64,000 nt of DNA from a virus (lineage: Duplodnaviria; Caudoviricetes), in the IMG/VR virus record IMGVR_UViG_3300022561_000008, positions 3,469-67,468 of that record. One strand, given 5' to 3'. This document shows, piece after piece, positions 19,141-24,348 of the stretch; position 1 is the first letter of the stretch, and every line of letters starts with the position of its first letter. A model generated the notes under the pieces. The model made no database searches and was not told the DNA's origin. It saw only the letters and a list, made by a program, of their open reading frames with translations. A program made the translations under genes and the position numbers.

Positions 19141-19554
19141 ATGAGCGTACTTTGTCCAGACCCAAAAGTTTACGAAGCAATTTATCACAAAATGTGTGCG
19201 TATACCTTCAATAAAACAGTTGATATCAATTATTGTTCAGTGTTCAGTAGTGCAACATTTGAACAAATTCAGGAGTTTGTTACTTCACTTTGTGACCTTA
19301 ACGAACAATCGTACAACAAAAGGTACAATAAACAAACGAAGGCAGGCGAAGAGTTAAGTAAGTTTATTAACTTTAGGTTTAAAAATCCTAAAATTAACAC
19401 ATATCAAATGTTGAAATATTTACAATGTATTCAATACAATATTGAATTAAAACATGAAAATGTATTAATATTAGATAAGGCTATAAACGAAATTTCGCAC
19501 CGGATTATTAACGAGTTACCCGAATACCAAACAGCAAAATATTCAGAAATTTAA
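19141..19554 (+). CDS. Early hypothetical protein
   Basis: 137-aa ORF. Confidence 0.7.
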   Translation: MSVLCPDPKVYEAIYHKMCAYTFNKTVDINYCSVFSSATFEQIQEFVTSLCDLNEQSYNKRYNKQTKAGEELSKFINFRFKNPKINTYQMLKYLQCIQYNIELKHENVLILDKAINEISHRIINELPEYQTAKYSEI

Positions 19555-19572
19555 TACTTAAAAATAAAAGTT

Positions 19573-19839
19573 ATGAGAACGAACGCAATTGTAAACACAG
19601 ATTTTAATACCTACCTTGTTAAATTTCAATTCCAAAGTACAGAAAATTGTTTTATTGTTCAGGGTTCAGGTTTAATGGATTGCCTGAAAAAATACGATAA
19701 AAACGGCGTGAAAAGCATAACCGAGTTTAACCCGTCAGACGCAAAATTTAAAAGAGTATCACGCGCTGATATACTACAATGTTATTCATGGGATACTGAA
19801 ACGTATATCTATCTGACTGGACATTATTACTTCAGGTAA
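19573..19839 (+). CDS. Early hypothetical protein
   Basis: 88-aa ORF. Confidence 0.65.
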   Translation: MRTNAIVNTDFNTYLVKFQFQSTENCFIVQGSGLMDCLKKYDKNGVKSITEFNPSDAKFKRVSRADILQCYSWDTETYIYLTGHYYFR

Positions 19840-19908
19840 CGAACAACGAACAACGCGAAAGTACAAACCCGCAAACAAAAGTATAAACCAAAAGTAAAAA
19901 ACAATATT

Positions 19909-20130
19909 ATGAAACAAGTAACTATTGAAAATCAGACCAGAAAAAATGAATTTTTTCACGTCACGTTGAAAAATAAGGGAGATAAACAGCCATTAAAAGT
20001 TAGACGTAACGGAATGACAAAGTTATGGAAAACCAGACCAAACGATTTCAAAATTCCAGTGAAATATGGCCTACATGAATACGCGTATATTGATCAAGAC
20101 AATGCTAAAGACTGGCTAGTTAATGAATAG
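19909..20130 (+). CDS. Conserved phage hypothetical protein
   Basis: VRRNGMTKLWKTRPNDFKIPVKYGLHEY motif. Confidence 0.75.
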   Translation: MKQVTIENQTRKNEFFHVTLKNKGDKQPLKVRRNGMTKLWKTRPNDFKIPVKYGLHEYAYIDQDNAKDWLVNE

Positions 20131-20224
20131 AGAATAAACCCGTCTCAACATAATACGGTTGTGAATCAAATAAAAGACGGGACAAAGTACATAAGTACAT
20201 AAACAACAAATAAAATTTACTATT

Positions 20225-20437
20225 ATGAAGACTCTACAATTATTTAAAGACGGCAAAGAAATTATTGCAACTGACGGTGTTGTGTACGTAGACGGTAGAT
20301 TCAATTTGAACAGCATTATACGCGAGGTTAAAAGACGAAACGAACGAATGATTAACTTCCCGTACAAAATAGCTGATTCCTTTGCTGTTTACAAAGGTGC
20401 GATAAGGAACGGTTACGGGCAAATAACCAGGATGTAA
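20225..20437 (+). CDS. Early hypothetical protein
   Basis: 70-aa ORF. Confidence 0.65.
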   Translation: MKTLQLFKDGKEIIATDGVVYVDGRFNLNSIIREVKRRNERMINFPYKIADSFAVYKGAIRNGYGQITRM

Positions 20438-20460
20438 ACGAACAATTAATAAGCGAACAA

Positions 20461-20685
20461 ATGGGAAAGATAAGCGAACAGCTATATGCAGCTATTATAA
20501 GTCACGCAAATGTAAACATTCATACGGTCGGCAGGAGTTTATTTAATGATCCTGAAAAGATAGATTTACAAATGGAGGAACTACAAGAAACAAATAATAT
20601 GGCCAAATATGCAGCCATTGAATCACTTAAAGCAAGAAGAGAATATATAATTTTGATTTACGCAAAAAATAACAAGTTGATTTAA
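20461..20685 (+). CDS. Early hypothetical protein
   Basis: 74-aa ORF. Confidence 0.6.
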   Translation: MGKISEQLYAAIISHANVNIHTVGRSLFNDPEKIDLQMEELQETNNMAKYAAIESLKARREYIILIYAKNNKLI

Positions 20686-20696
20686 TAAGCGAACAA

Positions 20697-20885: not shown

Positions 20886-20958
20886 TAATAATAATAATAA
20901 TAATAATAATAATAATAATAATAATAATAATAATAATAATAATAATAATAATAATAAT
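20881..20958. repeat. Perfect (AAT)26 microsatellite
   Basis: 78 nt of uninterrupted AAT. Confidence 0.95.
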
Positions 20959-20962
20959 AACA

Positions 20963-21127
20963 ATCAAACACATAACACACGAAGAAATAATAATCCTAAG
21001 AATTGGATTCAACGAAGGCTTAAGATGTATGCAGAATCACCCTGACGATGATGATTATGATGCAGTATATTTCGAAAGAGCATTAACTACAGTCGAACAA
21101 ATGGAGACAAAGAATACTAATAAATAA
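20963..21127 (+). pseudogene. ORF lacking canonical start (ATC where ATG expected)
   Basis: ATC-KHITHEEIIILRIGFNEGLRCMQNHPDDDDYDAVYFERALTTVEQMETKNTNK*. Confidence 0.45.
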
Positions 21128-21132
21128 ACAAA

Positions 21133-22521
21133 ATGGAAGTAAGATTTTTATACACAACTGAAAAGAATTGGAAAAAATCCACCAATAAAAACGGGTCTGT
21201 AAAATCTGGAATTAATCACTATGTAACCGTAAAAGGCGAATCATATAGTGAATGTTTATCCAATGCAAAAAATGAATGCGGATTTAACGACGAACAGTTA
21301 TTGGGTAGTGATATGTTTAAATACTTTACGAAATGAAAAAGAAACAAACCCCCTCAACCATCATCGAACAAATACGCGTCAATAGTAACGTCGCGTATGA
21401 AGCGAACGAGTTAAGTGAGCGACTGGAAAAGTTCATCTATAACCTTCCTAAATATGTAGATTCAGAAACGGAAGTAATGTTTAAGAAAGTAGCGGATGAA
21501 TTAAGCGAAATTTGCGAAATAGAACATAGGTCGAATGCAAGGTTGTTGAACGAATTTAAACAACTGAACAAATGAAAAATAAACCCAAACAAACAGGAAT
21601 GCAGAAAATCATCCAAATAGTAATGGATAGCAAAACCATGAACGAAGCATACGAAAATGTAATACTGTCGCCGATTCAAGTAGATCCGAACGACTCAGAT
21701 TGGTTCGCCGACAAGTATAACCCGAACAATACCCGAACAATGAAGCAAAGTTTTGAGCTATTTTATAACGATATTAAAAACGAAGAAAAATGAACAAGAA
21801 ACAATTGATACAATTCAACAAGGAAGCCCGAACGATACTCGAACAACTACGGCGAATAACTCCCGAACAATGGGTGATATTCTTATTCACCCTTTGTCTC
21901 ACAGCCTCAATTTGGCTATTTTGCATCAGGAACGCATGGATTATATTGCCAGTGGCGATAATGGTTTTAACAGTATTAATAATCACTAATAACGACAAGA
22001 AATGAACGAACAAACAGCATTTATCGTATTTTACGCATTACTTTTTTTAGGTTTCAGCTGCATATTGATGGGATTTTATCTCAAATCTGTGCAAAAAGTT
22101 AAGCTGGACTACAACGAACAGTTCATGCTTTTCTTAAGCGAACGAGGAATTTACTGGCTATATCGAAAGGATCTGAACACAGACTGCGAACCAGAAGAAT
22201 TTGTAAGGCGAATAACTGGCTATAATCGACAGAGTTGCTTCTGGGTAAAGCTAAACGCTCAGTGGATCGAACGACTCGAACAAATCGTGGAGGCGAACAA
22301 ATAATAACTAAAAAACAAATAACATGAAAGCATTAGGAACAATTTTAGGTGTAGCGATTTGGCTTGGAGTAATTGTATTTGGGAATATTTTAAATGCTCC
22401 ACTCAAATCTGATCAATGGTTTTTAATCTCAATTAGGGTTTTGCATTGTATATTTTGGGGATTCTTCTCAATTTATGTAGCGACAAAATTTCACGACTGG
22501 TTTAAATCTCACATAAAATAA
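21133..22521 (+). other. Run of six small coupled early ORFs (21133-21336, 21333-21575, 21572-21793, 21790-22005, 22002-22304, 22324-22521); several have TM segments
   Basis: ATGA overlaps; hydrophobic stretches in the last three. Confidence 0.65.
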
Positions 22522-22527
22522 TAAACA

Positions 22528-22583
22528 ATTAACAATTATTAACTAAAAACAACTTGCATATATAAAACATTTATTTATCTTTG
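22528..22583 (+). promoter_or_regulatory. Early promoter with ATTAAC-N4-ATTAAC repeat
   Basis: TATCTTTG at 22576-22583; repeats at 22528 and 22538. Confidence 0.65.
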
Positions 22584-22587
22584 TGTT

Positions 22588-24348
22588 ATGAAAACAGCAG
22601 AATTTAATGAATTTAAAGTAGGGGATCGGGTCAGGCTAAAGGATGGATTAGTTGCTGGCAAAGTATATTGTGGGCTTACTCTTTTAAAAGATATGATGTT
22701 TAACGGATTTTTAGTAATTGAACGCATATCTAATTACGGAAGCCTAATTATTACTGGCTATTTTTACTCTCCAGAAATGCTAACGCTATGACAACAACCC
22801 TAATTCTCCCGAACGAATCCTTCCTAAGCGAAGGAGTCCTTCTAATATGCAAACAGGCAACGAATGGCTGCCAAGGATGCAGTAGAGCCAACCGAAACGA
22901 CTGTGACCGATTCCTGTGTAGTCAAGTTCATCGGAGCGATTTCAAATCGGTTATATTCATAGAGACCAGATCAGAGATAATCGCTGGCAAACTGGTTGAG
23001 CAAGTGGAAAATAAAGGATGTGGGGCGTGTGCGTTTGCTGCGAACGATGAAGAATCAGACCCATGCCGAACATGTACAGGAAAAACAATGTATAAAGAAA
23101 TTAGGAGGAATTGAGATGAACGACAACAACATGAGCGCGATAGATCACGCAAAATATATGCAAGAACAAATGTGGGAAATTCATATACAGGAATGTGCCG
23201 GAAAGTATAGGAACAGCCTGCTTGAAAAGAGAAGATATCACATTCATGGTATGGGTCAAAAGGTTGGACTGCCATTAGAAATGAAGCAAATAGAAAGCAT
23301 GGTAGATGGTTTTATTGACGGAGCTTTATCAAATGGCACAAAAGAACATTGGCAAAGGGGGATGTATTCAGAGGAAGAAGTTAAAGATATTCTAACTAAA
23401 CGAAACGAGATGTTCAGCACCAAAATAGAATCTTTTAGTAATCTTCTATTAAAACAGGATTTAGAATGGTTCGAACAAAACAAAAAGAAACCATGAGCGA
23501 ACAGATCGAACAACCCGAACAAGATAGTCCCGAAAATCTACAGTGGGTACAGATGCCAGCACAGGTCGAACAACCCATGCGCAAATATTATCTCACCAAC
23601 GAACAGCAACGGGTCTGTGATGTGCTTTCAGAGTACGAACGAGCCTACATATCGGTTTCATCAAAGGAAGGCAATTATATGGTCTTAAATGGCAACAAAA
23701 CCGAACGAGTCAGATCGAACACACTGACGGCTCTGGTCAAGAAGGGATATCTAGGAGAGAATGGGAGAAACCGATTAAAACTTATATGATATGTTTGAGA
23801 AAATTACGAAGGGAGAGTCCATAATAACCCAAAGAGGAGATAAGTATCTTCTACAAATAGAGTGTGATGGTAAATTAGCGGCCTTTACTGGCAGTTTTGC
23901 CAACGCCGAATTTATCACCTACTGTTTCAATCTACAGCAGAAGTATGATATTGTATGTTTAGAAGAAGCTGTGAAATGCCTCGAATCCGTAAAGGGATTA
24001 CTTGATGAGTGCATATCATTAGCGCATCACAGCCCGCGCATTAAGGCTTCAGAAAAGGTTGAAATACTTATCAACAAAATTAAAAAACAATAGAAAGCAA
24101 TGAAGAATTTATTTAAGTATTTATTTGTACCGTCTGGCGAAAAGGTAGTAGTTACTGCTTATGAATCGTGGATAGTAAGATGGTTTTCTGTTCACCTTTC
24201 GTATGGGGAATATACATCTAAAGAAAAACAAGCTGAGGTGTTTACATCTAAGGCGGATGCGGAAAAATTTGCTAATTCATTAAAAGATGCACTAAAACTA
24301 TTAAAAAATACAAATTTTGATAGTCACATAACAATTGAACAAAATTAA
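22588..24348 (+). other. Run of small early ORFs (22588-22791, 22788-23114 Cys-rich, 23116-23496, 23493-23789, 23791-24093, 24100-24348)
   Basis: ORF track, tightly packed same-strand genes. Confidence 0.65.

Follow-up and report, generated by a model that had tools for sequence, protein, structure and literature searches.

A one-stranded CGAAC(A/G)A word repeated through an early gene block in a family of phages

The DNA considered here (the window) is a stretch of 64,000 nucleotides, bases 3469-67468 of the 67,468-bp IMG/VR virus record IMGVR_UViG_3300022561_000008, which is rated complete by CheckV; the source samples of this DNA are glacier metagenomes. From 17.1 to 35.7 kb of the window extends a run of plus-strand genes, the first part of which consists of about 30 small open reading frames (ORFs). 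Fifteen of these small plus-strand ORFs (19141-23789), together with their spacers, are spanned by a block in which a short word, the heptamer CGAAC(A/G)A (hereafter CGAACRA, with R for A or G), is repeated on one strand only. This block is a genuine feature under strong selection, and a whole family of phages conserves it, keeping the word, its strand and its density while the individual sites turn over. What would read this word is a separate question, and we tentatively prefer the early transcript, over the DNA itself, as the molecule being read. The elements of the block and of its upstream flank are as follows.

17115 to 17122, plus strand: Bacteroidota-type -7 promoter element, TATATTTG, preceding the first plus-strand early gene (17168)
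19302 to 23722, plus strand: the motif block, with 39 copies of CGAAC, of which 35 read CGAAC[AG][AG]; 8.4 per kb
19840 to 19853, plus strand: tandem (CGAACAA)x2, directly after the stop codon of the ORF at 19573-19839
20881 to 20964, plus strand: perfect (AAT)26-28 microsatellite, which starts at the stop codon of the ORF at 20697-20885 and abuts one motif copy
23466 to 23789, plus strand: last ORF of the block (w23466), 107 aa, with 9 motif copies that lie mostly in its variable, disordered, E/Q-rich 5' part

An earlier note on this DNA, made by eye, had listed 39 plus-strand starts of CGAAC between 19302 and 23716 and had divided the heptamers into 20 CGAACAA, 10 CGAACGA and 5 CGAACAG; every start and the whole division were reproduced exactly. 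Its rough expectation of about three copies and its remark that the reverse complement is rare are also borne out, with 3.6 CGAAC expected from the composition of the block (Poisson p 6e-27) and two GTTCG in the same interval. Beyond 18-26 kb, each 2-kb bin holds 0-2 plus-strand CGAAC and 0-4 GTTCG, which is to say about 1 per 2 kb. The localization is sharper still for the full heptamers: CGAACAA is found 20 times on the plus strand of the block, never on its minus strand and three times in the other 109 kb of both strands taken together, the corresponding counts for CGAACGA being 10, 0 and 0. In an unbiased scan across the window, CGAACA and CGAACAA outrank every other localized word by far, and none of the single-mismatch variants of the heptamer is enriched.

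Thirty-three of the 39 copies (85%) are intragenic and six are intergenic. The intragenic copies occupy reading frames 0, 1 and 2 in the ratio 3:6:24, the 24 being those in the GAA-CAA (E-Q) frame, in agreement with the note's statement that the word occurs in several frames as well as between genes. Helical phasing at 10-11 nt was not found (vector strength 0.01-0.06), the only periodicity being that of 3, which comes from coding. Motif copies do clump at short range: neighbors stand 30 nt or less apart in 55 cases, 33 being expected. The region of the promoter-like elements, 16-18 kb, has no plus-strand CGAAC. The block is neither a set of promoters nor a set of terminators.

When the codons of the block are shuffled with the amino acids preserved, using the block's own, motif-inflated codon usage, 10.1±2.6 in-CDS (coding sequence) copies are obtained (maximum 20 in 2000 shuffles) as against the 33 observed; under the large genes' codon usage, 5.3 are expected. 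The excess over synonymous shuffles holds in four genomes, the window and relatives described below. The GAA, CAA and CGA codons are over-used in the block relative to the large genes. Furthermore, the dipeptide EQ occurs 18 times in the block against 4.3 expected and 17 times against 15 in the large genes; hence, selection on the word has reached the proteins too, as the note had supposed from their appearance. The word is accordingly a signal at the level of the nucleic acid and not a codon or amino-acid bias, and the selection for it acts at both silent sites and amino acids. The note had named three outcomes that would speak against such a signal, and none of them came true: the enrichment survives the amino-acid-preserving shuffles, it is not matched by a similar density across the genome, and it is not seen on both strands.

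Relatives were gathered through homologs of the SF2 helicase encoded downstream of the block, the near-complete contigs among them being about 65 kb long. Every relative examined in this lineage possesses a same-strand block in the syntenic early operon; the Cellulophaga phage phi38:2 has no motif block. In the closer relatives, the word is of the CGAACRA type (helicase identity 73% for L120/L121, 70% for L122, 73% for L139 and 61% for L123/L124), and the plus-strand CGAAC block lies 3-10 kb upstream of the helicase, at 4.5-8 copies per kb, with GTTCG rare or absent (CGAAC versus GTTCG is 43:4 in L120, 43:0 in L122 and 19:0 in L123). Measured against their own synonymous shuffles, the blocks of relatives contain 33 copies versus 8.5, 40 versus 11.2 and 18 versus 6.3. 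The genes in these blocks are to a considerable degree different ones: L120 and L122 have 6-7 of the window's block genes in common with it, and L123, with only 2 of the 15, nevertheless keeps 24-25 copies. Even where orthologous genes can be aligned, the sites themselves have moved. In 14 ortholog comparisons, just 16 site pairs fall in common alignment columns, set against sums of 63 sites on the window's side and 37 on the relatives' side; one pair of orthologs with 7 and 3 sites has none in common, and neither does a pair of 74% identity with 3 sites each.

A second, more distant set of relatives (L126, L142 and G122, the last containing L140; about 50% helicase identity) shows a drifted form, NGAACGA, in 17-19 copies within about 4 kb and none on the opposite strand; in G122, GAACGA and its reverse complement stand at 18:0. 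None of the window's block genes is found in these GAACGA-type phages. The layout of G122 is nonetheless that of the window, with a P4-type helicase on the minus strand at 19.7-21.0 kb, plus-strand ORFs from about 28 kb, some 2 kb of word-free small genes and then the block at 29.9-34.3 kb. Most distant is the cultured Parabacteroides phage PF672P2 (39% helicase identity), in whose plus-strand small genes at 51.3-55.8 kb there are 15 CGAAC against 3.2 expected and 9 CGAACRA against 0.63. Many of these copies are extended to GGCGAACGA, so that the word takes the form (G)GCGAACRA. The note had proposed asking whether related phages keep a cluster at the syntenic locus in the face of gene turnover, and this is what they do. 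Tandem or triple copies of the word were found by pattern in more than 230 IMG/VR contigs, and among those outside the family none had, at comparable G+C, a dispersed block confined to one strand. Neither the block nor the first 20 kb matched any deposited phage genome at the nucleotide level, a search of viral contigs with the exonuclease found no close relatives, and in the papers searched nothing relevant was found on CGAAC in phages, on the phage P4 iteron TGTTCACC (see below) or on PF672P2. As a separate observation, the early region of L123 (0-4 kb) has a second localized word, GTCGGCAGC, with 17 copies on one strand, which is probably a tandem repeat.

The block is also a place of rapid change. 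Between 19000 and 24000, the window matches L122 and L120 in segments of 83-88% nucleotide identity with a rearranged gene order, the helicase gene being about 66% identical; this points to what was probably recent horizontal exchange and rearrangement within the block. The ends of such homology segments fall close to motif copies (5 of 16 within 4 nt), an observation that we discount, as local alignments naturally stop on shared words. The spacer with the tandem (CGAACAA)x2 has (CGAACAA)x4 in its L120 ortholog, suggesting that copy number there changes through slippage and that new copies can arise in this way. The (AAT) tract was regarded in the earlier note as surrounded by the cluster and directly abutted by one copy. 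The abutting copy is there, and the tract itself is confined to this genome: no microsatellite occurs at the loci of the ten relatives checked, which rules it out as a part of the motif system. The contig of L121 has a break some 170 bp upstream of its ortholog of the 21333 gene, a sign that the region may be hard to assemble there too.

After the small ORFs, the plus-strand run encodes an AP2-domain protein, a YqaJ-type exonuclease, the SF2 helicase, an AAA_23 ATPase, an RNase T-like exonuclease and an integrase, and the minus-strand run that makes up most of the remaining window includes genes for a P4-alpha-type helicase, the tape measure, the major head protein and tRNA-Thr. The genes that enter into the interpretation are the following.

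8502 to 10010, minus strand: P4-alpha-type helicase (D5_N / SF3), Pox_D5 in its C-terminal region; a candidate reader at the DNA level
24359 to 24910, plus strand: conserved protein with a weakly OB-fold-like prediction, about 0.6 kb downstream of the block
25421 to 26308, plus strand: YqaJ/lambda-Exo-type exonuclease, downstream of the block; the YqaJ match was obtained with its L126 ortholog
33888 to 34994, in the plus-strand run: integrase

With its integrase, the phage counts as temperate. Its closest cultured relatives by the helicase are phages of Parabacteroides, Cellulophaga and Flavobacterium, from which we predict that the host is some member of the Bacteroidota; a scan of GTDB genomes for related prophages gave only matches of 24-27% identity in unrelated phyla and did not pin the host. 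Bacteroidota-type promoter elements, TAnnTTTG, stand at the boundaries of the gene runs, at 17115(+), 16259(-), 29124(+) and 3870(-), with another at 22576, and some of them have an additional TTTG upstream. Scans for sigma-70-type promoters and for terminators gave counts equal to the shuffled expectation. A Shine-Dalgarno sequence is absent before every ORF of the early run, the leaders being A-rich instead, and the tRNA is the sole Rfam match. The motif block starts about 2 kb downstream of the promoter element at 17115, in the same gene run, and the arrangement in G122 is alike.

Three of these gene products have to be considered as potential readers. The conserved C-terminal 70 residues of w23466 are predicted with pLDDT above 90 to adopt a winged-helix-like fold, and all its best structural matches are winged-helix domains, albeit weak ones (Z ~5, Foldseek E > 0.2); a protein-atlas search indicated YjhX-toxin-like folds as well. 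In every CGAACRA-type relative, the block ends on the right with this gene. It is missing from the GAACGA-type phages and from PF672P2, and hence, as far as these genomes tell, it cannot be the universal reader. The protein at 24359-24910 and the exonuclease are the only neighbors that the window has in common with the GAACGA-type relatives, and the two follow the block in the glacier-lineage relatives L120, L122, L123, L126, L127 and L142. A tblastn search with the former found no homolog in the 43.6 kb of PF672P2 examined, and the exonuclease of that phage is about 20 kb from its motif block. Sequence-profile searches of w23466 and w24335 were uninformative, structure and atlas comparisons indicating winged-helix-like and OB-fold-like folds, respectively, with weak scores (Z ~5). 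The third is the helicase at 8502-10010, with D5_N, DUF5906 and Pox_D5 domains and a resemblance to the solved primase-helicase 7ola. In a BLASTP comparison it aligns to residues 410-728 of the 777 of P4 alpha (E 2e-16), which confirms the P4-type assignment given in the note. It is the sole candidate reader present in the window, G122 and PF672P2, in all of which it stands at a similar distance from the block (7-14 kb) across the divergent region. No helix-turn-helix repressor was recognized by Pfam or PHROGs among the genes scanned.

Our preferred reading, to which we give rather less than even credence, is that the word is read on the early transcript as a tag. CGAAC(A/G)A would be a cis-acting recognition word that is selected for number and not for position, and it would most likely be read on the sense strand of the transcript of a delayed-early, fast-evolving block of accessory genes. 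A polycistronic early RNA would start at the Bacteroidota-type promoter at about 17.1 kb and, some 2 kb further on, would carry about 40 heptamers over 4.5 kb. We infer that the reader would be a sequence-specific RNA-binding protein or an endoribonuclease, conserved either in the phage family or in its Bacteroidota hosts, which binds or cuts the copies and so would impose a common fate on the block—timed decay or processing, stabilization, or the titration of the reader itself by a multi-site decoy.

Were only the transcript read, strand exclusivity with the antisense word at background would follow. As seen in the window, G122 and PF672P2, the copies invariably follow the coding strand and stay inside a run of co-directional genes, leaving the non-coding divergent control region free. 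A 7-nt word in many copies, with variable spacing, clumping and no phasing, fits better with multi-site avidity binding than with a phased assembly on duplex DNA. The maintenance of site number while positions change likewise speaks for a tag on the transcript, as do the copies in every frame and in spacers with their excess over synonymous shuffles in four genomes, and the persistence of the block in phages without the local candidate DNA binders w23466 and w24335 is counted on the same side. These properties taken together—strand exclusivity, confinement to a single gene run, an irregularly placed 7-nt word kept by number, and persistence without the local binders—are most simply accommodated by reading of the transcript.

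Analogies on the RNA side are available. The RegB endoribonuclease of T4 targets GGAG in early mRNAs, where it coincides with Shine-Dalgarno sites, and CsrB is a non-coding RNA of about 350 nt that titrates an RNA-binding protein with about 20 copies of a 7-nt word. The likeness to RegB and to CsrB/RsmZ would lie in a short word that is repeated on a class of transcripts and leads to a common fate or to titration; the difference is that the word here runs through 4.5 kb of coding sequence and not through Shine-Dalgarno sites or a small non-coding RNA. Restriction to the sense strand of one defined transcript class, as would be expected of an RNA-class tag, is what is observed. The word resembles several known oriented words and matches none. 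Pairing of the word with the T-loop of a tRNA (GTTCG) was considered and dropped, the loop of the phage's own tRNA-Thr being TTCAAAT.

Several observations weigh against the transcript as the molecule read. Of the sequencing runs listed for this stretch, none is on record as RNA, and an RNA-binding protein or nuclease partner was not found. A strongly destabilizing tag predicts avoidance of the word elsewhere, and none is seen: on the sense strand, the minus-strand genes have 7 CGAACRR and the rest of the plus-strand operon 3 CGAACRA, where calculation by hand from composition gives 7.4 and 1.9, respectively. The predicted accessibility of the motif copies in the RNA is no higher than that of composition-matched heptamers. 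Several genes within the block have no copy at all, so that the word is not a mark placed on each cistron. Lastly, the co-orientation of word and transcription is not independent evidence across the relatives, because these are all syntenic, and a polar process on DNA would give the same picture.

Such a polar process is what the earlier note had favored, for example in the form of a distributed replication origin for the P4-type helicase, and it is a possibility that we regard as somewhat less likely than the transcript tag. The copies would then form a polar array on the DNA to which a sequence-specific binding domain of the phage attaches, most plausibly the C-terminal origin-binding region of the P4-alpha-type helicase or, as a second candidate in the closest relatives, the winged-helix-like protein at 23466-23789; the array would either load or orient the helicase, serving as a drawn-out, iteron-like zone of replication or loading, or coat the block. 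The helicase aligns to P4 alpha in residues 410-728, and the proteins of this family read short iterons, of 8 nt in P4, which is similar to the length of the word. The P4 record has 16 type 1 iterons, TGTTCACC, at ori and crr, 6 within 104 bp and 10 within 300 bp, in both orientations. The reverse complement of our word, YYGTTCG, has TGTTC in common with this sequence, and the PF672P2 form, TCGTTCGCC, equals it at 6 of 8 positions. A homologous helicase, moreover, is encoded in the window, G122 and PF672P2, the one candidate of which this can be said. Copies within the w23466 gene would also be reminiscent of the lambda ori, which sits inside gene O. The arrangement speaks differently: P4 has 16 copies in two compact clusters and both orientations, whereas the phage has about 40 over 4.4 kb of coding DNA, in one orientation, inside genes and free of helical phasing. 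Thus, of the features of a P4 origin, the alpha-type SF3 helicase is present, and compact non-coding iterons in two orientations are not, nor is a conserved AT-rich element, the (AAT) 'unwinding element' of the note being unconserved. A common pentamer such as TGTTC can arise by chance, and for w23466 the winged-helix matches are weak with a YjhX-like alternative, and the gene is missing where blocks persist. What stands of the note's origin is therefore its polarity, synteny, P4-alpha homolog and shared TGTTC; its AT-rich element does not, and in spread and orientation the sites are unlike those of P4. A tag on the early transcript is at least as likely as any reading at the level of the DNA. 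The packaging role that the note had listed as an alternative is rejected, since the assembly is circular and some 22 kb separate the block from TerL and portal, which are encoded on the plus strand just beyond the window, at 551-3634 of the full record. The ends of the record (1-200 versus 67270-67468) overlap by about 155 bp with one single-base indel, so that the assembly, labeled 'linear' in the record, is closed and probably circularly permuted.

The remaining readings find in the word a counterpart of oriented words known from elsewhere. Chi sites are asymmetric words of 5-8 nt with a single active orientation; they are tolerated in every reading frame, and their number is kept while their positions change. 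The phage word is like them in these respects. It could then be a signal that a host DNA translocase or nuclease (in the Bacteroidota, AddAB) recognizes in one direction, thereby protecting the phage DNA from degradation or making the mosaic accessory region, next to the phage exonuclease module, a recombination hotspot. The block is indeed the most mosaic part of the genome and, in the glacier lineage, lies directly upstream of the OB-fold-like protein and the YqaJ exonuclease; the Chi sequence of Bacteroides fragilis AddAB was not known in 2010 (PMC2887965). We consider this reading improbable. Chi is distributed genome-wide, over-represented in the host and skewed with replication, and the phage word is packed into a single 4.5-kb cluster and drifts between relatives. 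In most of 121 Bacteroidota genomes, sampled from the phylum at large, CGAACRA is no commoner than its reversed control and usually rarer, and on four contigs of arbitrary Bacteroidota genomes, not of the host, its strands are unskewed (37:32, 12:12, 80:72 and 51:66). These counts in host-phylum genomes weaken the comparison with Chi. In addition, with TerL and portal about 22 kb off, packaging would leave no free end nearby, and some 20 kb separate exonuclease and block in PF672P2.

Phages themselves offer a precedent for a dispersed, orientation-dependent control word in the stoperators, exemplified by those of L5 gp71 and of the TipsytheTRex repressor. The repressors of Cluster A mycobacteriophages bind more than 20 asymmetric sites oriented with transcription, reversal of a site abolishing repression (PMC9283540); the sites are 13-mers found genome-wide, mostly in short intergenic spaces, and at the early promoter too (PMC9283540). 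By analogy, a phage repressor could bind the word in the lysogen and block elongation through the accessory block. The temperate lifestyle with an integrase, the multitude of asymmetric sites and their common orientation with transcription are in keeping with this, as all the blocks are on the coding strand. The word differs in being a 7-mer at 8 per kb that is 85% within CDS and packed into one block, with none in the promoter region at 16-18 kb and a background frequency elsewhere in place of a genome-wide intergenic distribution; a repressor was also not found by Pfam or PHROGs among the genes scanned. We accord this no better a chance than the Chi-like signal. Least probable of all is a by-product without function, in which slippage of the heptamer seeds decaying copies or the genes share a low-complexity, E/Q-rich ancestry. 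It draws on the tandem copies (two here, four in L120), on the 24 of 33 coding copies that lie in the E-Q frame and on the presence of a second microsatellite within the block. Decay products with one mismatch are not enriched, though, copies are found in every frame and across unrelated genes, the excess over synonymous shuffles recurs in four genomes, and word and strand are kept in phages with none of the block genes. For a reading other than these we reserve a small share, comparable to that for the Chi-like or the stoperator-like reading.

A broader picture, which we offer as a doubtful one, is the following: temperate Bacteroidota phages from glacier to gut might write a private heptamer, at about 8 per kb, through a hypervariable block and thereby turn it into an addressable compartment of the RNA or of one DNA strand. 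Its reader would treat whatever genes land in the block as a unit, serving as a timer, a shield against host nucleases or a sponge for a host RNA-binding regulator, and genes could come and go under an address that is rewritten all the time. To our knowledge, no described phage control system works as such an addressable block. Dozens of small genes with no relation to one another have their codons and their amino acids shaped by the word, which persists even between phages with no more than 39-73% identity in the core helicase. Early accessory regions of other phages often hold genes for host takeover and counter-defense. Chi, KOPS and the stoperators are short oriented words whose effect depends on number, and each of them has led to a molecular machine. 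In Bacteroidota phages, with their non-canonical promoters and lack of Shine-Dalgarno use, we know of almost no characterized regulation, and finding the reader would expose a mechanism of control or protection in them. As the cultured relative PF672P2, with the host Parabacteroides faecis, carries a block, the question is accessible to direct bench work.

A few further observations concern other parts of these genomes. Among the SF2 helicase homologs P0001, P0007, P0018 and P0025 and that at 4585-7065 of L125, several are 826-858 aa long with Hint, Hom_end or LAGLIDADG domains, suggesting that the helicase gene hosts an intein in some lineages, though not in the window. Near the integrase of distant relatives (L126 15809-16723, L127 12657-13574 and L125 16586-17020) are genes for a dGTP diphosphohydrolase N-domain (PF18909) or a dCMP deaminase, which hints at modified DNA bases in parts of the phage family; no equivalent of either was seen among the window genes scanned. 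In the leftward early genes of the window, CGGAGA occurs 10 times on the minus (coding) strand at 12514-14536, where about 1 is expected per 4-kb scanning window. This cluster is marginal after multiple testing; it could be another block-specific word, weaker than the first, or an uncommon instance of GGAG use. Finally, an intergenic element of about 40 nt is present in two copies (18442-18484 and 18878-18917), which precede the ORFs at 18479 and 18911; it is 91-92% identical to a spacer of L120 (181-224), far above the identity of the genes around it.

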